64,000 nt of DNA from a virus: the IMG/VR virus record IMGVR_UViG_3300027963_000041, positions 32,001 through 96,000 of that record. One strand, given 5' to 3'. Made by a program: the position numbers and the translations under genes. Below are positions 30,401-45,746 of the stretch, piece by piece. The notes below the pieces were generated by a model. It searched no databases and was not told the origin of the DNA. It saw only the letters and a program-made list of their open reading frames with translations. Each line of letters opens with the position of its first letter. Position 1 is the first letter of the stretch.

Positions 30401-33400
30401 GGTACTGGAACAACATTCACAACAACAGTTATTGCTGGTGACACTCTTCGTATTTCAAATCAAGAAAGAATTGTTGCGTCTGTTACGAATAACACATTCT
30501 TAACATGTACTACACAATTCTCAAAAACTGCAACAGCACAAACTGTTAATAGCATAAACCCTAATGAATACGTTATCCCTGGCGGCGGTTTACACTTTCC
30601 AGTTCCATCATCTGACTATACCGCAGACTTAATTGTTTACAAAGGTAGAAAAGCAAAACTCTATGTTGATGAAAACGGTGAACTTGGTATCAATGATGGT
30701 TCACCAGGTTACCCATATTCATCACCACCTCCAACAATTCCTGATACACTTGAAATTGCAGAATTGACTATTCCTGTGTATCCTTCTCTTGCAAGAGATA
30801 TTCAGATCGAATCTTATAACAACCGCCGATTCACCATGCGTGATATTGGTAAGTTAAAGACTCGCGTTGAACAGTTAGAGTACTATGCTACACTCAACGA
30901 AACTGAACGTAAAGCAAGTGAGAAAGTTATTCTTGACGATGCTGGTTTAGACAAATACAAAAACGGTGTTCTTGTTGATACTTTCGATGGACATAACATT
31001 GGTGACGTAAACTCAGCAGACTATAAAGTTTCTATTGATAGAACATTCCGCTATGCGACTGCTTATGCAAACAATCAAATTCAAATTGCTTTGAAATATA
31101 ACACAACCGGTTCTTCTGGTGTGTATCGCACACCTGGCAATAAATTGATGTTGGATTATAATGAAGAAACATTCATTGATCAGCCATATGCATCTCAGAC
31201 AATTAATCTAGCACAAGAACTTACATTCACTTGGACTGGTGATTTGGAAGTAGTGCCAGCAACAGATAACTGGATGGATACAAATTATCCACCAGACGCA
31301 AATACAGTTGTTGACTTGACTGGTTTTGCTGATAACTTCAGAACACTTGTCGATGCATGGAACACAGAAGTGGCTCCAATGACACGTTTTTGGACAGGCG
31401 AACCTCCAGTTACTTCACAAACAAACGTGGGTAGTGCGTTCCGCAGTTTCCAACGCGCAACTACATGGGGTCTTGCGGTTCTGCAAGCACAAAGAACACT
31501 TACTACACAAGATCAAATTCAATTTGAAAATCGTGGACAGATTGACATTGCCGCGGCTGACGTAAACAGAGTTACCGAACGTGTTTCTGACGTTTCTATT
31601 AAGCAATGGATGCGTCCACGCGACTTTATTTTCCAAGCACAGTCCATGAAAGACGGTGCAAGAGTTTATGCATTCTTTGATGATATTAACGTAACTGCTA
31701 ACTGCACACAAATTCGTTTGGTTGGTAGCACAACAGTAGATGATTTACTCGACTTGTTTGACACAAATGGTATTCTTGCAACAGATAACACAAAGTATGT
31801 TCGTTTGCCTGCTGGTACATTGCGTACAGAAAGAAATAGAATCTTCGGTCTCTTCAGAGTACCTGAGAATCGTTACTATACCGGTCAACGCACATTCCGT
31901 TTGACTGACGATATAGACAATCGCGTATCTACTGCCACAACAATTGCAAGTACATCAATCTTCTCACAAGGCCTTGCAATCTCTAAGGGGCTTGATATTG
32001 TTAATACTCGCCCGTTTAACTTTAGAGGATTTGCAGACCAGCGAGTTATTGGAACTGCTGGAACTCGACAAGTTGTTATATCAGACACAACTTCTAACGT
32101 GCAAGTTGGACAATGGGATCCATTGTCTCAATCATTCTATGTTGATGAAAACGTATACAAACAAGGTCTCTTTGTTTCATCTTTAGATTTGTTCTTTAGA
32201 AATAAAACGGACGAACCTAATCTTGGTGTGACTGTAGAAATTCGCGAAATGCAAAATGGTTTTCCAACCCGTAGAGCGGTTGGTGATGTATCAAGAAGAG
32301 AAAACGCAGAGATTAATGTAAGCACATCTGGTACAGTTGCAACCACGTTTGAGTTTAAGAGTCCAATCTATCTTGCGCCTGGCGTAGAGTATTGCTTTGT
32401 TGTAAAACCAGATGGTAACTCTACAGGCTTTGATGTGTTCGTTGCAGAACTTGGACAATTTGACATTACCAATCCAGAAATTAATCTGCGTATTGATAAA
32501 CAAGCCGCTGCCGGTATTCTATTCACCTCTGCTAACGACTTTACTTGGTCTGCAAGACAAAATCAAGACGTTAAGTTTAAGTTGAAGGTTGCCAAATTCC
32601 TAACTACAGCGCCTGGCGTTGCAGTACTTCAGAATATGAACTTGACGGCTAACAGCGACTTTGAATTTAACTCTTACATTTTGAATATTGAAAACCTTAC
32701 AATCCCAAAAACAGACGTAACATTGGAATCAAGAGTTTCTGATGCATCATATGCTATTGCAGATTTTAAACCAGTTCGTAATCTAGAACGTGTTCAAGAA
32801 ACTGCCGTTCGTATTATTGCAAATACAGTTAATGAAGCGACAGAACTTTCAACAACAAAATCAATGACTGTTCGCGCAACTCTGACTACAGAGAATGCAT
32901 ATATTACACCATACATTGATTTGCAACGTATGAATGCCGCGCTTGAGCAAACTCAGATTAATAACTTGTCCTATCGTGAATTAGATGGTGGAGTTACATG
33001 GTCAGCAAATAGCACCATTGTAACTGGCGCAGGCACATCATTTAATACTGAATTAAGTGCTGGTGAATTTGTTCTCTTTGGAGAAGAATATCGTCAAATT
33101 GCTTCCATTACAAATTCAAGTTACATGGAAGTTAAGAATGCATTCACCACATCCGGTTCTGGCGCAACAGTATTCCAAGAAAATGAAGAAAATCCAACTG
33201 GACCATATGCTTCAGAGTCGCGCTATATCACTCGCGTAGTTAAGTTGAATGACGGATTTGAATCTTCAGACCTTGCGGTTTACGTTTCAGTTAACAAGCA
33301 ACAATCAACAGGCATCAAAGTTTACTATAAAGTACTTAGCCCTGAAGATACTGATCCATTTGAGTCTAAATTCTGGAACGAGATGGTAATTGAAGGTGGT

Positions 33401-36656: not shown

Positions 36657-37994
36657 ATGCCATTTTTTAATTCGGCAGGCGCCGCCGCGGTAGCAACAGG
36701 TCGTGGAGGATATCATCCGAGTGTTTCGGGAACCGATGCGCCTGGCTCTTCAGCCGCGGGTTCCTTAGGAACATCAACGCTAAGTGGCAATGGTCAAACC
36801 ATTGCTTCTACTTCAGCATCGACTGTTACTGGTCAACGAGATATTATTGACCCGTGGTTCACTGGCGCAGAAGCATATTCAATTACTTCAGGTTCTTTAC
36901 CTCCAGGATTTGCACTCAACCCATCAACCGGTCAAGTAACCGGAGCATATACGATAGCAGGCTGGAACGAAGACGGTACTTATAATTTTACTGTTCGCTC
37001 AAATACTGGTGACGGGCTTCATCAAAGCGACAGGGCATATTCGATTGCGGTTTCAGTTCCTTTTCTTTACAAACAGATCATCACAATTGGTTATGTAGTC
37101 GGCGGTTACATTAGTTCAACTCCATACAGAAATGTGCATGGAATGAATAATGCAACGGACACCACCACAAACAAAGGCGATTTGATTGGTAATGCCGCCC
37201 AATATACTGATGGTTTCCCATCTAAAGACAACTCATATATAATGGGTACAAGCGATAGCGCAAGTACCGGTTCAGCAAGAACTGATAAATTCAATATGAG
37301 AACTGAGACTGCTATTGCACATGATGCTAGTAGAAACATGCCAGGTTCTAAAGATGACCTAACAATAGCATCAACATTGTCACCAGCCGCAATTGGTTAT
37401 ATTTTTGGTGGCGGGTCAGCATCAGTTTTTAAATTTACTTCAAGTAATGATACTTGCGCGACAATTCCTGCTACGTCAACTGCTGGATCGGCTAGCACAG
37501 CAACAGGTACTGGCTCTATTCAAGGAGAACTTAACGCAGTTATAACTCCTGGTGCAAATAAATTTGTTTACGCAACAGAAACAAATACAGGCATCGCGCC
37601 AGCATATCCTGATGTAGACGGACAGCAAAAAGGCTTGTCCACAAAATTAGGTAAAGGCTATATGGGCAACGAAGGTGGTTATGCTAGAGGTTATAACTTC
37701 CGCGTTTGGAATTTTAGTAGCGAAACATATACTACAGTATCAAAGCCAGCAATTCCATTACACCCATTGGGTTATGGTGAAGAAAATATGATCATGGGTC
37801 AACATTGGGGATATATTATGGGACTTTACAACGAATCAACTGGACAAATTACAGATTGCATCAAACATGTTTATCCAACAAATAGTGGATATTATCTGGG
37901 TTTCGGTGCTGATTCTGCGCCTGGTGGATTTAATGTGCCGGCTCCAGGTTCTCTTGGGGGAAGAAGTTCCGGAGCAAAGTCTTGGAGAGATTAA
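36657..37994 (+). CDS. Putative-Ig domain plus repeat (propeller-like) virion-associated protein, paralogue A
   Basis: YSITSGSLPPG..LN.STG..TG (He_PIG-like); GYVVGG, GYIFGG, GYMG, GYIMG repeats. Confidence 0.7.
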   Translation: MPFFNSAGAAAVATGRGGYHPSVSGTDAPGSSAAGSLGTSTLSGNGQTIASTSASTVTGQRDIIDPWFTGAEAYSITSGSLPPGFALNPSTGQVTGAYTIAGWNEDGTYNFTVRSNTGDGLHQSDRAYSIAVSVPFLYKQIITIGYVVGGYISSTPYRNVHGMNNATDTTTNKGDLIGNAAQYTDGFPSKDNSYIMGTSDSASTGSARTDKFNMRTETAIAHDASRNMPGSKDDLTIASTLSPAAIGYIFGGGSASVFKFTSSNDTCATIPATSTAGSASTATGTGSIQGELNAVITPGANKFVYATETNTGIAPAYPDVDGQQKGLSTKLGKGYMGNEGGYARGYNFRVWNFSSETYTTVSKPAIPLHPLGYGEENMIMGQHWGYIMGLYNESTGQITDCIKHVYPTNSGYYLGFGADSAPGGFNVPAPGSLGGRSSGAKSWRD

Positions 37995-39344
37995 ATGCCA
38001 TTTTTTAATTCGGCAGGCGCGTCCGCTGTAGCAACAGGTCGTGGGGGATTTCACCCAAATGTTTCTGGAACAGAGGCTCCAGGTTCTTCAGCCGCAGGTT
38101 CTTTAGGTACTTCAACGCTAAGTGGTAACGGACAGACCATTGCCGCCACTTCAGCATCGACTGTTACTGGTCAGAGAGATATTATTGATCCATGGTTTAC
38201 AGGAAGCGAATCTTACTCAATTACTTCAGGTTCTTTACCTCCAGGTTTTACACTTAATTCATCAACGGGTCAAGTCACAGGTGCATATACTGTAGCAGGT
38301 TGGAATGAAAGCGGATCATATAACTTTACTGTTCGTGCAAATACTGGTGATGGGCTTCATCAAAGCGACAGAGCATACTCAATCGCAATAACTGTACCAT
38401 TTTTCTATAAGCAAATCATTACAACTGGTTATGTAGTCGGCGGTTATTTAAACTCAGTACCGTGGCGAAACGTACATGCAATGAACAATGCGACGGACAC
38501 CACCTCAAACAAAGGCGATTTGATTGGTAATGCCGCACAATATACTGATGGATTTCCATCTAAAAATTCTTCATATTCAATGGGTACAAGTGATAGTGCG
38601 TCTACTGGTTCATCAAGAACTGATAAATGGAATATGAGAACAGAAACGTCTATTGCACATGATGCTGGTAGAAACATGCCAGGTTCTAAAGATGACTTAA
38701 CTATAATGAGTACACTGGCACCAGAAGCAGTAGGATATATTTTTGGTGGTGGTTCAACATCTATTTTTAAATTTCTTTCGAGTACTGACGTTGCCTCAAC
38801 AATTCCTGCAACCGGTCCAGCAGGCGGTACAGGAAGCGGATGTGGATCAATTCAAGATGAATTGGTCGGGCATGTTTGGGGAGATGGTAATACTGGACAA
38901 ACATTTACATATTCAACTGAGACTTTAGCCGCAGTCGGCGCAAACTCGGGCGGATTCAATGGACAGCAAAAAGGCTTATCTACAAAGTTAGGTAAAGGCT
39001 ATGGTGGTAATGAAGGCAGTTACGGAGGCGGTTATAACTTCCGCGTTTGGAATTTTAGTTCATCTACATATACTACAGTAGCAAAGCCAGCGATTCCTAG
39101 ATATCCAGCAGGTTATGGTGAAGAAAATATGATCATGGGTCAACATTGGGGATATATTATGGGACTTTATGTAAATTTAGAACCAGTAACATCACAAACT
39201 TCTGATTGTATTAAACACGTTTATCCAACAGATACCGGATATTATATGGGTTTTGCTGCCGATAGCGCGCCTGGTGGATTTAATGTGCCGGGTGCAGGAA
39301 TTATGGGTGGTCGTAGTTCTGGAGTAAAATCTTGGAGAGATTAA
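37995..39344 (+). CDS. Putative-Ig domain plus repeat (propeller-like) virion-associated protein, paralogue B
   Basis: Colinear close paralogue of 36657-37994 (same N-terminus MPFFNSAGA, same C-terminus GRSSGxKSWRD). Confidence 0.7.
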   Translation: MPFFNSAGASAVATGRGGFHPNVSGTEAPGSSAAGSLGTSTLSGNGQTIAATSASTVTGQRDIIDPWFTGSESYSITSGSLPPGFTLNSSTGQVTGAYTVAGWNESGSYNFTVRANTGDGLHQSDRAYSIAITVPFFYKQIITTGYVVGGYLNSVPWRNVHAMNNATDTTSNKGDLIGNAAQYTDGFPSKNSSYSMGTSDSASTGSSRTDKWNMRTETSIAHDAGRNMPGSKDDLTIMSTLAPEAVGYIFGGGSTSIFKFLSSTDVASTIPATGPAGGTGSGCGSIQDELVGHVWGDGNTGQTFTYSTETLAAVGANSGGFNGQQKGLSTKLGKGYGGNEGSYGGGYNFRVWNFSSSTYTTVAKPAIPRYPAGYGEENMIMGQHWGYIMGLYVNLEPVTSQTSDCIKHVYPTDTGYYMGFAADSAPGGFNVPGAGIMGGRSSGVKSWRD

Positions 39345-39354
39345 TTTTTTTGAC

Positions 39355-40251
39355 TTGGAGAAAGTAAACATGACTGAATTGGTAACTAAAGAACATTTTG
39401 AAACATTAACAAAGAGATATTCAAAAAATTCTATTTCAACGCACACTCAACACGAATCAAATTTGGTTCCTTTGAGCAATAGTGAGAAGCATTTTTTGAG
39501 AGAAGATCAAAAAGAACTTCTAGAGTATGCAGTAAACCGAGAATGGCAAACATCAAAATTTAAGATGCGTCACTTTGTTGGTGATGCACAAGTAACGCCA
39601 TATGCAAAATTAAAACAATATATTGTTGAAGCAAGAGAAAGAGAAGAAGCAATTGCTTCTATGGAATTTGAGAAAAGAAAACAAGAAGTTGAAGTAAAAA
39701 TTCTCAAGAAAAAAATTGAACAAGAACAAGATGAACTTCAAAAAGAACTTCATCAAATTGAACTTGAGAAAAAAGAAAGAGGACAATCTTTAGGTATCAA
39801 ACGAATTGAAGACCTATACAAAGAGCGTCAACAATTCTTAGAATTAATTGATGAATTCAATAACTCTTCAGAAGGAAGATTGCCAGATGGAACTTTGTTA
39901 TTAGAATGTTTAAGCGATCCAATTAAAGAAGAAATTCTTGAAAGAGAATTGTGGACTGCAAGACTAGCAAAGCAAGCGGCTATGGAAATCGCAACTGCTG
40001 GAAGAATTGGTTCAGGCAATTTAGATGCTATCGCAATGCTTGATAAAAATCATCAAGCAGAAGTTTTATTTCTTGCAACAGACTATGGTACTAGACTTGA
40101 AAGCGCAATGGGCTTTTTAAGAAACGAAGCGGTTGGTCAACTCAATCTAACATACAAAGACAAAGATGTTAAACTTACAGAGATTTTGTCTTTTACCGCA
40201 CACGAAAAAAATTACAACAATCTATTAGCGCACGAAAAGGTTAAAGAATGA
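39355..40251 (+). CDS. Conserved coiled-coil hypothetical protein
   Basis: SKFKMRHFVG..Q.TPY..LKQ..E...RE and W..RLAKQAA.E....GRIG.GNLDAI; start may be ATG 39370. Confidence 0.75.
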   Translation: MEKVNMTELVTKEHFETLTKRYSKNSISTHTQHESNLVPLSNSEKHFLREDQKELLEYAVNREWQTSKFKMRHFVGDAQVTPYAKLKQYIVEAREREEAIASMEFEKRKQEVEVKILKKKIEQEQDELQKELHQIELEKKERGQSLGIKRIEDLYKERQQFLELIDEFNNSSEGRLPDGTLLLECLSDPIKEEILERELWTARLAKQAAMEIATAGRIGSGNLDAIAMLDKNHQAEVLFLATDYGTRLESAMGFLRNEAVGQLNLTYKDKDVKLTEILSFTAHEKNYNNLLAHEKVKE

Positions 40252-40820
40252 AAATCGTTTTTGTTCCAAAAGAAAGAACCTTCAATTATGAAGACCCTAA
40301 CATTAGATATACAGGATCAAGAATTCCACTATCGTTTATGATGGGGTTTGTCGCAGATGTGGATACTTCTTTTGACTTTTCTGCGGTTGACTATAAAGAA
40401 CTTACTGAAGAAGAATCATCAAGAACGATTAAGTTTTTTATGAATCCTAATGGGTATGTCAAAGTTACGCAAGGTACCGAAAATTCTACACTAGAAATTA
40501 CTGCATCAAAAGAAGATATTGCTGGAATGCTTACCAGAGTTAAATATTATCTCACCGATGAAGATAAAACAAAAGCATTTACCTTTACTAAAGAAAATAT
40601 TCTTTGGATGTTTGACTTGAGAGTTGATAGAGTTAAAAAAATACTTGATGACTTTAATAAAAGCGAATATGAAAGTAGTGCTAATCTTGTTAGAACTAAA
40701 ATTGTTAATTCTACAGAAATGAAAGATATTTTTGTAATTGCACATAAATATTTTGGTATGGAGGCGCCTCCTGCAATTGTAGAAGAATTTAATTTAACAA
40801 AAACAACATTGGTAATATAA
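40248..40820 (+). CDS. Hypothetical protein, paralogue 1
   Basis: Overlaps the upstream stop; shares FVPK, GYVKV.GTEN.TL, Y..TDE, AH..FG with the next gene. Confidence 0.75.
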   Translation: MKIVFVPKERTFNYEDPNIRYTGSRIPLSFMMGFVADVDTSFDFSAVDYKELTEEESSRTIKFFMNPNGYVKVTQGTENSTLEITASKEDIAGMLTRVKYYLTDEDKTKAFTFTKENILWMFDLRVDRVKKILDDFNKSEYESSANLVRTKIVNSTEMKDIFVIAHKYFGMEAPPAIVEEFNLTKTTLVI

Positions 40821-40821
40821 A

Positions 40822-41409
40822 ATGATTATTTTATTTGTGCCTAAAACTCTTCCATTTGATTGGGAAAACTCAGCGTTCACTTATCTGCCATTTAAATTTT
40901 CTATGCCATTTATGGCCGCTGACGGCGTAAGAGTATTGGACCCAACATCTACACAAGGCACAGAATTTTTACAGAGCGTGTATTATATGATTCTTAATGA
41001 AACTGAATACACAAGAAGTTATAAATTTTATTTAAATGTTCGTGGTTACATCAAAGTAATCAAAGGTACTGAAAACACAACCTTACAATCACCGCCTGGA
41101 AGTAGAGACTATGATAATGTTGAAAAATTCAACTACTATCCTACCGATGAAGAAAATGAATTAGGATTTCAGTACACAAAAAAAGTTTGGCGTTGGGCAA
41201 TCAATGTTAGAAAAACTGAAAGATTGAAAAATTTAAGTGAACAATTCGCTGAAGAATACACTTCAATTGTAAATTCAGTATTATCTGAAATTGAATCTGC
41301 AACAACTGTAGCAGAATTAGGAAAGATTGCTCACACTAAATTCGGTGCTCAAACTACCGATTCGATAATTGAACAATACAATTTATCAACACCAACATTA
41401 TTAATTTGA
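40822..41409 (+). CDS. Hypothetical protein, paralogue 2
   Basis: Colinear similarity to 40248-40820. Confidence 0.75.
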   Translation: MIILFVPKTLPFDWENSAFTYLPFKFSMPFMAADGVRVLDPTSTQGTEFLQSVYYMILNETEYTRSYKFYLNVRGYIKVIKGTENTTLQSPPGSRDYDNVEKFNYYPTDEENELGFQYTKKVWRWAINVRKTERLKNLSEQFAEEYTSIVNSVLSEIESATTVAELGKIAHTKFGAQTTDSIIEQYNLSTPTLLI

Positions 41410-41425: not shown

Positions 41426-42004
41426 ATGATTGAGACAATGTTTACTGTGAATTTTTTTCGCAAAAATTTAAACACTAAAGTTGATCCGCTTTTAATTTCA
41501 GAACTATCTACTGAAGTTACCGGAGAAACATATAATATTGACGATGGTGGATCATCATCTCACCCAAGTAATGTGCTATATCAAACCGATGCGAGACTTG
41601 AATCTTTAGTAGATGAAATTAAAATTTCAACACAAGAAGCATGGAATGAATTAGAGTTTAGAAATGATTTAACACCAGTGATTACTGAAATGTGGATGAA
41701 TGTTGTTTACCCTAAAGGTAAAATGACAGACCAAGCACATCATTCTAAGTATTCAATGTATGGAGTTTATTATCTTCAAGCAGATGAAAATTGTGGTGAT
41801 TTAATTTTACATCACCCATTAGATGGCATGACAAGAAACTTGCCGTATCAACCAAAGCCAAACCTAGACAGATATAAGATTAAGCCAAAAACAGGCGAAC
41901 TAATTATTTTTCCATCATCATTTGTCTTTAACACAAAAGAAAACAAGAGTGAGTCTAATCGAATCACTCTTGAATTTGGAATCAATTACAAACTTAAAGT
42001 TTAA
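41426..42004 (+). CDS. TIGR02466-like 2OG-Fe(II) oxygenase-fold protein, metal ligands degenerate
   Basis: MWMN, GVYYL, PKTGELIIFPS, N.SE..RI...F; distal His absent. Confidence 0.65.
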   Translation: MIETMFTVNFFRKNLNTKVDPLLISELSTEVTGETYNIDDGGSSSHPSNVLYQTDARLESLVDEIKISTQEAWNELEFRNDLTPVITEMWMNVVYPKGKMTDQAHHSKYSMYGVYYLQADENCGDLILHHPLDGMTRNLPYQPKPNLDRYKIKPKTGELIIFPSSFVFNTKENKSESNRITLEFGINYKLKV

Positions 42005-42618
42005 TCTTCAAATTTTTTATTTGTCATTTGCTGTGTTTTTGGAAACCACAAAGAACGTCTTTCATCCCATTTGTGTTTAGGACTAAATTCTCCTTGAGCA
42101 TCAATGTAGTGTAAGAACATTTGATAATGGCGTTTGCCTGTATAAGGCTTGCGCCAGTGTGGCAAAATACATCCACTATACACAGCCAAGTCTCCAGGTT
42201 CTAATTCAACCTCAACTTCTTCTCCATTTTCTTTCTGAAAATAAATTGGCCAGTCAACTTCTTTCTTAACACATAGCGTAGCAGAGAATTGACAACTCGG
42301 TCTATCAATATGCTTTTCTAGCGTTCCTCCATTATAGTATATTCTCATATAACTATAAGTCTCAACAAGTTTTTTATTTACAGTTTGTTCTAACATATCT
42401 CTGAGATATACTAGAAGACTATCGCCATAGAGCGGTGAGTAAAATGCAAAACTGTTTGGCGATTGTGGATCACCATACGGATATCTTTGCGAAGAGTTAG
42501 GTGGATTGTGAGTATATCCAGCGTATTCGTGAATGTCAAAATTTAATTGAATGAAGCGAATAACTTCAGGATGAACTGCGTTTCGAATAATTTCGTATTT
42601 GTCTTCTTTGAATGCCAT
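42001..42618 (-). CDS. 2OG-Fe(II) oxygenase
   Basis: TYSY.RIY..G..L.KH.DRPSCQFSATL, L.PGD..VY.GC...HWR, Q.FLHY; start ATG 42618. Confidence 0.85.
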   Translation of the reverse strand: MAFKEDKYEIIRNAVHPEVIRFIQLNFDIHEYAGYTHNPPNSSQRYPYGDPQSPNSFAFYSPLYGDSLLVYLRDMLEQTVNKKLVETYSYMRIYYNGGTLEKHIDRPSCQFSATLCVKKEVDWPIYFQKENGEEVEVELEPGDLAVYSGCILPHWRKPYTGKRHYQMFLHYIDAQGEFSPKHKWDERRSLWFPKTQQMTNKKFED

Positions 42619-42625
42619 TTTTACC

Positions 42626-43252
42626 TCATCTAAATTTTGGACCAGTAACCCAACCAACTAAAGACTTTCTTTTTCCTTCAGTAACTTCTGCAACTCTATG
42701 CAACAAAAATGATGGAAAAAACATAATTGATCCTCTTTTCATAATTGGTACTGCTGGTCCTGTATGACTAACTAGAATTTCCATTCGACCACCTTGGTAA
42801 TCAACTTCTGGTTCAGATAGTAGAAAAGTAAAAGACAATTTTCTAAATTCAATCATAGTGGGTGGAGGATTTGCACCTAAAAACGAATCAAGGTGATAAT
42901 CATATTTACCTTCGTACTTTGCATTGTATTCAGTATATTGAAGACTATCATAACCATTTAACACAAAATTAAAATGATTGTTGTTTACGTCTTCAATTAC
43001 TTTATTCAATCTTTTAAAAATCCAAACTGTTTCTTCGTCAGGAGAAACCCAAGCGATATTAGATTTTCTAGAATTTTTTAAAATATCTTCATCTTGTTCA
43101 ATTGCCACTTGTCCCATGAACAATTCTTTTTTTGACATAATCTCACATATCTTATCCAATTCGTCTGGAGTAAATACATCATTTGCAGTTATGAATGTTT
43201 CTAACGCCCTTGCCCTATAATTCGTAAAGTTTGTTATTCCTGTGTATTCCAT
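42626..43252 (-). CDS. 2OG-Fe(II) oxygenase, PKHD/prolyl-hydroxylase-like
   Basis: QYTEY, YDYHLD, RKLS, YQGG, FPSFLLHRV..VTEG.RKSLVGW..GP. Confidence 0.9.
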   Translation of the reverse strand: MEYTGITNFTNYRARALETFITANDVFTPDELDKICEIMSKKELFMGQVAIEQDEDILKNSRKSNIAWVSPDEETVWIFKRLNKVIEDVNNNHFNFVLNGYDSLQYTEYNAKYEGKYDYHLDSFLGANPPPTMIEFRKLSFTFLLSEPEVDYQGGRMEILVSHTGPAVPIMKRGSIMFFPSFLLHRVAEVTEGKRKSLVGWVTGPKFR

Positions 43253-43261
43253 AATAATTCC

Positions 43262-44014
43262 TTAAAAATATTTTCTTAGAGTCTTCATAAAAAGATTTTT
43301 GTAAGTAGCAGTTCTATCAAACGAATAAGAATTGATATAGTTTTTCTTTTCTAGCCACTCTTTATCTTTTTGATTTGCATCTCTCACAACCAATTCTAAT
43401 TTTCTTTCTGTAATTGGTATGATATGGACCAAAGGATATCCTGCTGGAAACAATATATTCCCATGAGGTACATTCCACCAACCTTGAATGTTTACCTCAG
43501 TCGATTCATCGGTATCTAGCAATCCGATTGACGCATCAAATAGCGCATTGTCTGGATAAGAAATTGGATTAAAAAGAAGTTTAATTCCTTGTGGGGCAAC
43601 GACATTCCAAGGAGTGTTAATCTTCATAAAGTTTTTAGATTGATTCCATGTTCTAGGCAACTGTTCTAAAATATGATCTGGTTGACTTTCAAATAATGCT
43701 TTGCTAGTAAACACATCTTTAATCAATGCTTCAGTTGGAATAGTCCACTCAAACCCTCTGCCTTTTGTAGAGTCAACTTCAATAACTGCATCATGCCAAA
43801 GCGGAACAATATATCCGCTTGACATTAACTTTACAATTCCTGGACACTTAGCAATATGTGATTTACGAACTATTGATGGGTCATTTTCTCTTGTATCTTT
43901 ATAATTTTTAAATGCATTTGTCATCCAAATTGGCATCATTTTCGATGCAGGAACAATCGGAAATGATTCAGCAAGACCAGGAACACTTGAAAAGAAAACT
44001 ATTTCGTCTTTCAT
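43262..44014 (-). CDS. Conserved phage hypothetical protein often found in oxygenase clusters
   Basis: KCPGI..LM.SGY..PLW.D, KI.TPW, G..DTD, G.PL...IP pattern; ATGA overlap with the upstream gene. Confidence 0.65.
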   Translation of the reverse strand: MKDEIVFFSSVPGLAESFPIVPASKMMPIWMTNAFKNYKDTRENDPSIVRKSHIAKCPGIVKLMSSGYIVPLWHDAVIEVDSTKGRGFEWTIPTEALIKDVFTSKALFESQPDHILEQLPRTWNQSKNFMKINTPWNVVAPQGIKLLFNPISYPDNALFDASIGLLDTDESTEVNIQGWWNVPHGNILFPAGYPLVHIIPITERKLELVVRDANQKDKEWLEKKNYINSYSFDRTATYKNLFMKTLRKYF

Positions 44015-45675
44015 TTTCTCACCACAACAATATATAATCCATTCCACCAATCTTTAGAACTTTCAATTCCATTGAGAATCTTCTTATGATACAGAATTTC
44101 TAGTCCAGCCTTTTTAATGCCTTCGTCAGCACCAGAAACAATACCATCCCAATTAGCGTCATCGAAAATAAGAATGGCTTCTTTATCAAGTTTATCTGCA
44201 TAATATAATACTGCATTTCTTGTTGACTCATGATCGTGCGGACCGTCATAGAACATAAACTTTACAGGCTCATCAATCAAATCTTTATTGACTTGAAGAA
44301 AATCAGCATCGATAGCGTGAACATGATTCTCTTGTACATATGGTTCAATTGCACTAGCAAACTTTTCGTATTTGTTTTCAGGCATCTCAAAGTTACCATT
44401 TTCAGGATGCGTAGTCTGCGACCAGTTATCGATTGCCCATGCTTTAATTGTGTTACCTCTCAATGCAGATGCAAGTGTCGCACCCATTGCGGTACCAATC
44501 TCAAGATAATTGCCTGCAAATTTTGCAGTATGATTAATAATCTTTTGCACTCTAGGACTTGTTAAGCCTTTGATATTGATAATGATATTATCTGTAGCAG
44601 ACTTTTCGACAATATCTGCCATCGCAGAAACCATTGGTGTAAGAAATTGCGTTGCTTTCTTGTCATAGATTTTATCGCAGTAGTGACAATCCCAGCAATC
44701 AAATTTGCAAGTTTTAATTTTATTGCGCCAAATATCAATAGGCTTTTCTTCTAAATTATTGTCGGCAATATAGTCATCGAATTGATCAAAAAGAACTTCA
44801 TCACCATTCGCAAAGCGTTTGATGATATCCATTGTTTCAAGCAATCTAGATGAGGCTTCGCGCCCATGCATCTTGATTACATCAATGCCTAATTCTTCAA
44901 CAAACTCAACCCAATCTTCACGCCATGGCGGAAAGTTAGCCGTCTTCAATGATAATGCGTTGTCTTGATATTCCCACTTGGTGCAACTTACTCGGCTTGA
45001 TGGTGCGTTAAAATACTGTGGCGCATCATTGCCTCTTGTATTATTGTATTCAAAATGTTCTACCATGAATGAGCATTGACCTAAACAGCCTTCATTTGCA
45101 AGAAGGCTAAGTTTAATTGGCATACCATTTTTGTGGCAGTAATCTTTTGCTTCTTTAATTCTCAACAATGCATCTCTGTCTCGCATAAGATCACGATCCA
45201 AATTGATATAATGAAATCCTATCTGTGCAAGGTTCACTACTTCAGTTGCAGTATGAACATCTCTAAGGATCGTATTTTTGATCATTAACTTAGGAAATGC
45301 TTCTTGAATTTGACCTGTAGCAACCCAATGGGTGTGAGGTATTGTGGCAATATGAATGCCAGCATCATAATATGGCTTGAAGTTTTCAATCCATAAATCT
45401 AGATTTTCTTGCGTTGGAGGAACCTGAATGTTATTGAATGTTGCGCTGATTGGTATGCCAAGCGCGTCTTGAATATTTCTAGCGGCTAAAATGGCTTGTT
45501 CATAATCACCAGCATTTTTAAACACATCTCCCATTGCATCTTGGTGAAAAGGCGCAATTCGGGAGGTAAAATATACATCATAAATCCAGTCTTTATATTT
45601 TTGCAGAAACTCTAAAAAGTGAAAATATTCCTTCTCAGACAGTTTTGGATTCAATGGCACACTAAAAATTTTCAT
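44011..45675 (-). CDS. U32-peptidase-family (Fe-S) domain fused to a class I SAM methyltransferase
   Basis: I.LDRDLMRD, LLANEGCLGQC...EH...SC, KMHGRE, CKFDCWDCHYC; C-terminal YLEIGTAMGAT, FYDGPH, IFDD; start ATG 45675 after GAAGG. Confidence 0.75.
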   Translation of the reverse strand: MKIFSVPLNPKLSEKEYFHFLEFLQKYKDWIYDVYFTSRIAPFHQDAMGDVFKNAGDYEQAILAARNIQDALGIPISATFNNIQVPPTQENLDLWIENFKPYYDAGIHIATIPHTHWVATGQIQEAFPKLMIKNTILRDVHTATEVVNLAQIGFHYINLDRDLMRDRDALLRIKEAKDYCHKNGMPIKLSLLANEGCLGQCSFMVEHFEYNNTRGNDAPQYFNAPSSRVSCTKWEYQDNALSLKTANFPPWREDWVEFVEELGIDVIKMHGREASSRLLETMDIIKRFANGDEVLFDQFDDYIADNNLEEKPIDIWRNKIKTCKFDCWDCHYCDKIYDKKATQFLTPMVSAMADIVEKSATDNIIINIKGLTSPRVQKIINHTAKFAGNYLEIGTAMGATLASALRGNTIKAWAIDNWSQTTHPENGNFEMPENKYEKFASAIEPYVQENHVHAIDADFLQVNKDLIDEPVKFMFYDGPHDHESTRNAVLYYADKLDKEAILIFDDANWDGIVSGADEGIKKAGLEILYHKKILNGIESSKDWWNGLYIVVVRK

Positions 45676-45746
45676 TACTTCACCTTCATTTTCAAAGTTG
45701 TTTATATTATATAGGCCCGGCGGGTTGCTATGTAGATTCAAAAAAG

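Follow-up and report, generated by a model that had tools for sequence, protein, structure and literature searches.

A U32-Like Barrel Fused to a Methyltransferase in T4-Like Phages: A Widespread Family with a Possible Role in Protein or Peptide Tailoring

A two-domain protein joining a remote relative of the U32 family to an S-adenosylmethionine (SAM)-dependent methyltransferase is encoded by an uncultured T4-like phage (IMG/VR record IMGVR_UViG_3300027963_000041; 143 kb, completeness estimated at 80%). The gene occupies positions 44011–45675 on the minus strand, stop codon included, of the 64,000-nucleotide stretch analyzed here (positions 32,001–96,000 of the record; hereafter the window), and its product of 554 residues is read from 44014–45675. 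We propose, with a probability of roughly 45%, that the protein is a bifunctional tailoring enzyme that would hydroxylate and then O-methylate a protein or peptide side chain in concert with the product of a second gene, phrog_1409. The proposal draws on the two-domain architecture, the barrel fold, the conservation of individual residues, the linkage to phrog_1409, and the gene contexts of relatives. An initial annotation, made from the sequence, had described a U32-family Fe–S domain fused to a methyltransferase and had suggested hydroxylation followed by O-methylation by analogy with tRNA and quinone pathways; its observation is confirmed, and its interpretation is partly supported.

Distribution, Fold, and Conserved Residues

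The minus-strand open frame extends from 44011 to 45741, and the internal ATG at 45675 is the likely start because a ribosome-binding site (GAAGGTG) lies a few bases upstream and homologues begin at the same point (M-x-KIFSVP). The product falls within PHROG family phrog_1458 (E 1.5e-176), whose function is unannotated, and its N-terminal domain alone matches phrog_36869. A tblastn search located the fusion in 126 of 50,697 phage records, nearly all of them T4-like cyanophages (among them S-RIM2, S-RIM12, Syn19, Syn33, P-SSM4, and S-ShM2), with 42–46% identity over the full length. Three records of Ralstonia jumbo phages are matched as well, and RP31, the one examined, has the N-terminal domain only. 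Metagenomes supplied more than 1,900 homologues, and homologues carry the Joint Genome Institute (JGI) label “predicted O-methyltransferase YrrM”. An exhaustive search with the N-terminal domain returned 284 cluster representatives, many of which are stand-alone proteins of 330–450 residues. Given the metagenomic homologues, the phage records, and the strength of the phrog_1458 match, the fusion gene is real and under selection. The family is widespread, very large, and unannotated, and the literature on U32 proteins in cyanophages, in phages, or in pathways for peptides made by the ribosome and modified after translation (RiPP) yielded no description of it.

The N-terminal domain (residues 1–345; 44641–45675, minus strand) was modeled with AlphaFold from an alignment of 68 distant homologues having 22–49% identity to the window protein, and the same 68 sequences underlie the conservation figures for this domain. 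The model, with a predicted local distance difference test (pLDDT) score of 94.9 and a predicted template modeling score (pTM) of 0.92, displays an eight-stranded β/α barrel spanning residues 1 to about 290, with a helical tail after it; the full-length fusion was predicted with pLDDT 88.8 and pTM 0.83. Foldseek retrieved many triosephosphate isomerase (TIM) barrels whose E-values were similar. Of these, the U32 peptidase Mk0906 (5d88) superposed best by far, with a template modeling (TM) score of 0.71 normalized to target length and a root-mean-square deviation (rmsd) of 3.9; residues 1–278 of the model align with it. The domain is thus a (β/α)8 barrel whose nearest structure is the solved U32 one. 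To our knowledge, Mk0906 is the only U32 fold solved.

Profile comparisons may point in the same direction. An hhalign comparison with a U32 profile built from only four sequences (UbiU, UbiV, TrhP, and RlhA of Escherichia coli) gave 67% probability and E 5e-5 over 112 columns, in register across strands 3–6, and a greedy full-length alignment with the same four proteins gave 33% probability. The greedy alignment placed, at low confidence, C197, C201, and C231 on UbiU residues C169, C176, and C193, and KMHGR on KIEGR. When the domain was positioned by a protein language model, 30 of the 30 nearest named atlas clusters were either labeled U32 or carried PF01136 in 20% of their members (scores 0.96–0.97). 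Single-sequence searches of Pfam, NCBIfam, and the Protein Data Bank (PDB) with the N-terminal domain found no family, and the 68-sequence profile retrieved only de novo TIM barrels from the PDB, at E 0.07 or weaker. A PF01136 search of the whole phage record was likewise negative, with eight control genomes giving matches. We read the N-terminal domain as a remote branch of the U32 superfamily that is not a member of the curated family.

Only four columns are invariant among the 68 homologues, namely C323, C327, C330, and C333. These form a CX3CX2CX2C motif (44677–44709, minus strand) in the helical tail, outside the part that aligns with 5d88. The motif is the second cysteine cluster singled out at the outset (CKFDCWDCHYC, residues 323–333), and the other strings quoted for this domain, NEGCLGQC (194–201), EH (206–207), SC (230–231), and KMHGRE (268–273), were all recovered. 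Residues C197, C201, C231, E195, E206, H207, K268, G271, and R272 are conserved in at least 90% of the homologues, as are D33, N81, K133, T135, D160, R161, and R165. Judged from the secondary structure of the model, the conserved residues lie at the strands' C-terminal ends or just past them, on the face that is usually catalytic in TIM barrels. The barrel triad, which follows strand β7 together with E206/H207 (44983–45087, minus strand), has the spacing C197-X3-C201-X29-C231 and no conserved fourth cysteine nearby. Two residues ahead of C197 stands E195, and K268-x-x-G271-R272 aligns, again with low confidence, to the KIEGR of strand β8. Loss of the cysteines in homologues would have spoken against the Fe–S assignment, and all seven are conserved across the set. 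Because of this conservation, the seven cysteines suggest two metal sites. In the barrel, C197, C201, and C231 would hold an iron–sulfur cluster whose fourth ligand is either a residue other than cysteine or a distal one; the CX3CX2CX2C motif would provide a second site, and both may be Fe–S clusters.

Radical SAM enzymes are recognized by a CX3CX2C motif near the N-terminus of a partial barrel, with the three Cys serving as ligands. Such a string is present at residues 323–330, and assignment as a classical radical SAM enzyme was rejected: the string lies after the barrel and is followed by a fourth invariant Cys. Furthermore, the radical SAM family PF04055 matches neither the window protein nor any of the 68 homologues, and the 50 best folds include no radical SAM chain.

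The C-terminal domain (about residues 362–554; 44014–44592, minus strand) is predicted to adopt a Rossmann-type methyltransferase fold. Its earlier assignment to Methyltransf_24 holds: PF13578 matches residues 391–506 with E 3.6e-11 and 44.3 bits against a cut-off of 26.3, and the motifs YLEIGTAMG (390–398), FYDGPH (475–480), and IFDD (503–506) are in place. Residues E392, G394, G398, and D416 of the SAM motif are invariant in 20 full-length homologues, as are the acidic residues D477, D505, D506, and N508, and the domain is a class I SAM methyltransferase with an intact SAM motif. When the family profile was compared with the PDB, the sole match below E 0.01 was TrmR/YrrM (E 0.009). The best reading of the domain is that of an O-methyltransferase, which would belong to the structural group comprising catechol, caffeoyl-CoA, TrmR, and sugar O-methyltransferases.

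Partner Gene and Genomic Contexts

The window covers a structural module; its neck genes gp13 and gp14 are found upstream of the fusion gene in divergent orientation. The phrog_1409 gene lies 5.4 kb from the fusion gene on the plus strand (39355–40251; E 4.5e-43), with its true start probably at the ATG at 39370, and encodes a helical protein without a known fold, for which a Pfam scan found no family. A PHROG scan of neighboring genes placed phrog_1409 directly upstream of the N-domain gene in both S-RIM2 and the Ralstonia phage RP31, and it is also directly adjacent in P-SSM4, P-RSM1, Syn33, P-SSM3, and Syn19. By tblastn, phrog_1409 was detected in 120 phage records, in most of which it directly precedes the fusion gene, compared with 126 for the fusion gene itself, and the two distributions run in parallel across taxa (71 versus 77 records for Synechococcus, 38 versus 38 for Cyanophage, 8 versus 8 for Prochlorococcus, and 3 versus 3 for Ralstonia).

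In S-RIM2 the gene order is phrog_1417, phrog_1409, and then the fusion gene. Two tandem fiber-like paralogues of phrog_1417 (36657–39344, plus strand; E 1e-36 and 8e-31) are present in the window. The pair abuts and encodes proteins of 445 and 449 residues, each with an immunoglobulin (Ig) domain matching Pfam He_PIG and with Gly/Ser/Thr/Tyr-rich repeats in which G-Y-x-x-G-G recurs; the N-terminal halves are nearly identical, and the C-terminal loops diverge. On the other side of phrog_1409, two small tandem genes (40248–41409, plus strand; 190 and 195 residues) without a PHROG or Pfam family precede a 2OG-FeII_Oxy_5 gene (41426–42004). They fill the slot taken in S-RIM2 by phrog_1604, a family for which this genome gave no match. 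Also in S-RIM2, SWTG_00018 (L002:7701-8201, 166 residues) is recorded as “tail fiber protein” and matches the PHROG for DNA endonuclease V (E 5e-60); the endonuclease V gene is annotated denV in Syn19, Syn33, and P-SSM4.

Relatives outside sequenced phages were gathered by scanning one genome per species with a pattern derived from a five-sequence subset, which gave 19 loci. These lie in metagenome-assembled genomes (MAGs) of Smithella/Syntrophaceae, Campylobacterales (including a complete Halarcobacter chromosome), Desulfocapsa, Bacillota, Cloacimonadota, and Victivallales. Two more loci contain the phrog_1409 and phrog_1417 cassette and so are probably phage contigs that were placed in the bins of other organisms. 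Clustering and annotation of the neighboring genes yielded three recurrent settings. In the first, radical SAM or radical SAM/SPASM enzymes are encoded beside the N-domain gene (6 loci). One gut-bacterial cluster of this kind combines PqqD, two SPASM enzymes, a P-loop protein, NTP_transf_5, an S9 peptidase, an ATP-binding cassette (ABC) exporter, and open reading frames (ORFs) of 47–52 residues, a layout that is RiPP-like. The second setting is type I secretion, represented by OEP, an ABC transporter with a Peptidase_C39 domain, and HlyD; a protein with repeats-in-toxin (RTX) sequences adjoins the N-domain gene in two loci. These RTX calcium-binding repeat proteins, both near type I secretion genes, come from a Bacillota MAG (L032:10347-17011; 2,221 residues, running off the locus end) and a Desulfocapsa MAG (L026:265-789; C-terminal end only).

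The third setting is sulfate activation, with CysD and CysN/C for synthesis of 3′-phosphoadenosine 5′-phosphosulfate (PAPS) at four Smithella-type loci. A row of six genes is conserved in these Smithella/Syntrophaceae MAGs (L024:7589-13804, and also L025, L027, and L028), in the order N-domain homologue, short divergent paralogue, GNAT, TauE-type exporter, CysD, and CysN/CysC fusion. The short paralogue has 258 residues, displays the string ANAGCxxxC, and matches the N-terminal domain with 77% probability by hhalign. The row might make up a route to a sulfated product. A PAPS neighborhood would also fit a scheme in which the product hydroxyl is sulfated in Smithella-type loci and methylated in phages.

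Downstream of the fusion gene, three genes complete a minus-strand operon. The stop codon of the fusion overlaps, as ATGA, the start of a gene encoding 250 residues from the ATG at 44014 (43262–44014; phrog_7084, E 1.7e-40), whose nearest clusters in the protein atlas contain DUF6065 in 13–17% of members. It is followed by a 2-oxoglutarate (2OG)-Fe(II) oxygenase gene (42626–43252; Pfam 2OG-FeII_Oxy_3, E 2.6e-11) and by the last gene of the operon (42001–42618; phrog_2954, E 9e-53), for which a Pfam scan gave no match. The four-gene order is kept in a relative of 84% identity (L044). The 250-residue gene was considered as a version of the phrog_1409 partner and was rejected on an alignment without similarity. 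The T4 late-promoter-like string TATAAATA has nine exact copies in the whole window, all on the plus strand, several of them in gaps just upstream of plus-strand ORFs (e.g., 13432, 53640, 60290, 61257, and 62683); the count is weakly above chance, with 8 of 100 shuffles reaching nine. The minus-strand tailoring operon has no exact TATAAATA, and upstream of the fusion gene only a TATATAATATAAA-like string is found. A scan for sigma-70 promoters and terminators gave counts at chance level.

Proposed Reaction and Alternative Readings

In the reaction we favor, the barrel domain would hydroxylate a substrate carbon, the fused methyltransferase would then cap the resulting hydroxyl by methylation, and the co-inherited phrog_1409 protein would work alongside the enzyme. 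Hydroxylation followed by O-methylation is a reasonable inference given the U32 precedent and the fusion itself, and it rests on analogy. The substrate would be a protein or peptide side chain, and the Gly/Tyr-rich phrog_1417 proteins of the cassette are the obvious candidates in this phage. A protein, a peptide, or a secreted product is a more likely target than tRNA or a quinone in view of the partner linkage, the location within the structural module, and the contexts in bacteria. In this respect the tRNA and quinone analogies drawn at the outset fare less well, as the gene contexts appear to point away from both.

Several observations weigh against this reading. PF01136 gives no match to the window protein at E up to 1, leaving it outside the family by gathering score, and among the 68 homologues it matches none at E 0.01 and one at E 0.033. 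U32 proteins bind a [4Fe-4S] cluster through a four-cysteine motif, CX6CX15CX3/4C (PMC6747719); neither this motif nor the PROSITE-type signature is present, the N-terminal domain having CX3CX29C instead. The glutamate essential in TrhP, E162 on strand β7 (PMC6599085), aligns with the variable S190, in a region of low alignment confidence. On the methyltransferase side, O-methyltransferases account for seven of the eight nearest solved folds, but these are nearly tied with folds of other kinds. The argument for a protein substrate is one of gene neighborhood, and the neighborhoods are heterogeneous: a relative in a large virus sits in a sugar-modification cluster (L003) with transketolase halves, epimerases, a glycosyltransferase, and UDP-glucose dehydrogenase, and on a 58-kb probable cyanophage contig (L017:10001-12526) a stand-alone member of 446 residues precedes heme oxygenase and a ferredoxin-dependent bilin reductase. 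The latter two are typical cyanophage auxiliary genes. An oxygen-sensitive, O2-independent enzyme is also an odd fit if the host is an oxygenic cyanobacterium, as it is for the nearest cultured relatives. Finally, hydroxylation by a U32 protein still awaits demonstration in vitro (PMC10990095), and the U32 analogy thus has its basis in genetics.

Some of these points lend themselves to another assignment, in which the enzyme is an auxiliary metabolic one that hydroxylates a small aromatic compound or a sugar (a quinone, in the manner of UbiU/V with a UbiG-like enzyme, a pigment precursor, or a glycan sugar) for subsequent O-methylation. UbiU/V hydroxylate ubiquinone precursors (PMC6747719, PMC10990095), the nearest folds include two sugar O-methyltransferases, MeT1 and SpnH, and the sugar-enzyme and bilin-reductase neighborhoods just described would suit such a role. 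On a phage contig, a Trp_halogenase-family gene (L042:8632-10182, plus strand) moreover overlaps the 3′ end of the fusion gene of a 58% relative by about 40 bases; it lies among giant fiber genes (Peptidase_S74, Gly_rich_2, PA14). As a general linkage the halogenase was rejected, having been seen in that one relative: among 78 halogenase-bearing phage records the gene is mostly distant or the fusion gene is lacking. With no UbiT-like lipid-carrier partner, and with the tight linkage being to a helical protein and fiber-like genes inside a structural module, we consider a small-molecule substrate unlikely. More doubtful still is an RNA substrate, whereby a single-chain TrhP plus TrmR would hydroxylate C5 of a tRNA or rRNA pyrimidine and turn the latter into a 5-methoxy base, which would retune decoding in the infected cell. 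The characterized U32 proteins TrhP and RlhA do act on RNA pyrimidines, and in Bacillus subtilis the O-methyltransferase gene trmR is found in one operon with the U32 genes trhP1 and trhP2 (PMC6599085). The best PDB match of the family profile is that same TrmR, whose other name, YrrM, is the JGI label of the homologues; the phage gene is surrounded by virion genes, and a link to RNA was not found.

It is also conceivable, if distinctly improbable, that the barrel is no hydroxylase at all, and serves either as an Fe–S redox or radical module of other chemistry or as a substrate-docking domain like the TIM barrel of PRMT5. The missing U32 signature, cysteine spacing, and essential glutamate would be explained, as would the CX3CX2C string within the Cys4 motif; radical SAM enzymes near many relatives could perform the oxidative step, and PRMT5, which combines a TIM barrel with a methyltransferase, is among the full-length Foldseek matches. 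These matches, however, have rmsd values around 24 Å and TM scores of 0.2–0.26, and the PRMT5-like architecture was set aside as a resemblance of the separate domains only. About 20 polar residues of the catalytic face are conserved down to 25% identity, and the N-terminal domain also occurs alone, without any methyltransferase; both points speak against this reading. A radical module is at odds with the lack of any radical SAM fold or Pfam match and with a motif whose four cysteines are all invariant, leaving no open iron site. Least probable by far is modification of the phage's own DNA, in which a pyrimidine would be hydroxylated and then methylated as an anti-restriction hypermodification. 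It finds a trace in a weak match of the methyltransferase domain to phrog_2675 (labeled DNA methyltransferase; E 3e-9), whereas the gene lies in a structural module far from replication and nucleotide genes, and the nearest folds are O-methyltransferases rather than DNA methyltransferases.

The tailoring of a protein or peptide side chain can be taken one step further, to a scenario that we consider speculative and rather unlikely. The family would then be the first of U32 type to act on proteins or peptides: an O2-independent hydroxylase with two metal sites whose phage form, fused to an O-methyltransferase and guided by phrog_1409, would methoxylate side chains, aromatic or other, of fiber-like proteins encoded by the phage itself, and whose stand-alone forms in bacteria would modify RiPP peptides and secreted proteins of RTX type.

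Comparison with Characterized U32 Systems

The known targets of U32 proteins are confined to RNA pyrimidines and ubiquinone precursors (PMC10990095), and the family has recently been recognized as one of O2-independent, prephenate-linked hydroxylation factors. The closest counterpart in overall logic is the B. subtilis pair of TrhP1/TrhP2 (YrrO/YrrN) and TrmR (YrrM), which convert tRNA U34 to 5-hydroxyuridine (ho5U34) and then to 5-methoxyuridine (mo5U34). The phage N-terminal domain differs in falling below the PF01136 threshold, in its CX3CX29C spacing, and in its additional invariant Cys4 motif. It is further tied to the unrelated helical partner phrog_1409 and is encoded among virion genes.

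UbiU and UbiV of E. coli are U32 proteins with [4Fe-4S] clusters that support prephenate-dependent, O2-independent hydroxylation of ubiquinone precursors. The phage domain resembles them in its TIM barrel, in the placement of its cysteines after strand β7, and in the low-confidence alignment of three UbiU ligands with C197, C201, and C231; the putative order of hydroxylation and then O-methylation is also that of the ubiquinone pathway. In contrast, the fourth ligand is not conserved in the phage family, no SCP2 (UbiT-like) partner accompanies it, and the profile similarity reaches a probability of only 67%. The phage methyltransferase is part of the fusion and belongs to a type other than that of UbiG. 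The tandem paralogue pairs of Smithella recall both UbiU/UbiV and TrhP1/TrhP2. Relative to Mk0906 of Methanopyrus kandleri (5d88), with which it shares 10% identity, the phage domain possesses about 70 extra C-terminal residues containing the Cys4 motif, and beyond them the fused methyltransferase. Among the closest methyltransferase folds are metal-dependent class I O-methyltransferases, namely Rv0187 (5x7f), MeT1 (6g7d), an Anaplasma enzyme (4oa5), SpnH (4cdz), and CCoAOMT (5kva).

The family thereby extends the U32 fold by an extra invariant, putative metal site, a fused capping enzyme, and a partner gene. It adds a very large unannotated group, with more than 1,900 metagenomic homologues and some 126 sequenced phages that include many model cyanophages, and its bacterial members add RiPP-like, RTX/type I secretion, and sulfation clusters to the settings in which such barrels occur. 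Should the enzyme act on a virion fiber protein, it would represent a new form of protein tailoring in phages, one that might affect host recognition. With a putative hydroxylase and its capping enzyme in one chain, the fusion would offer a tractable system for U32 chemistry.

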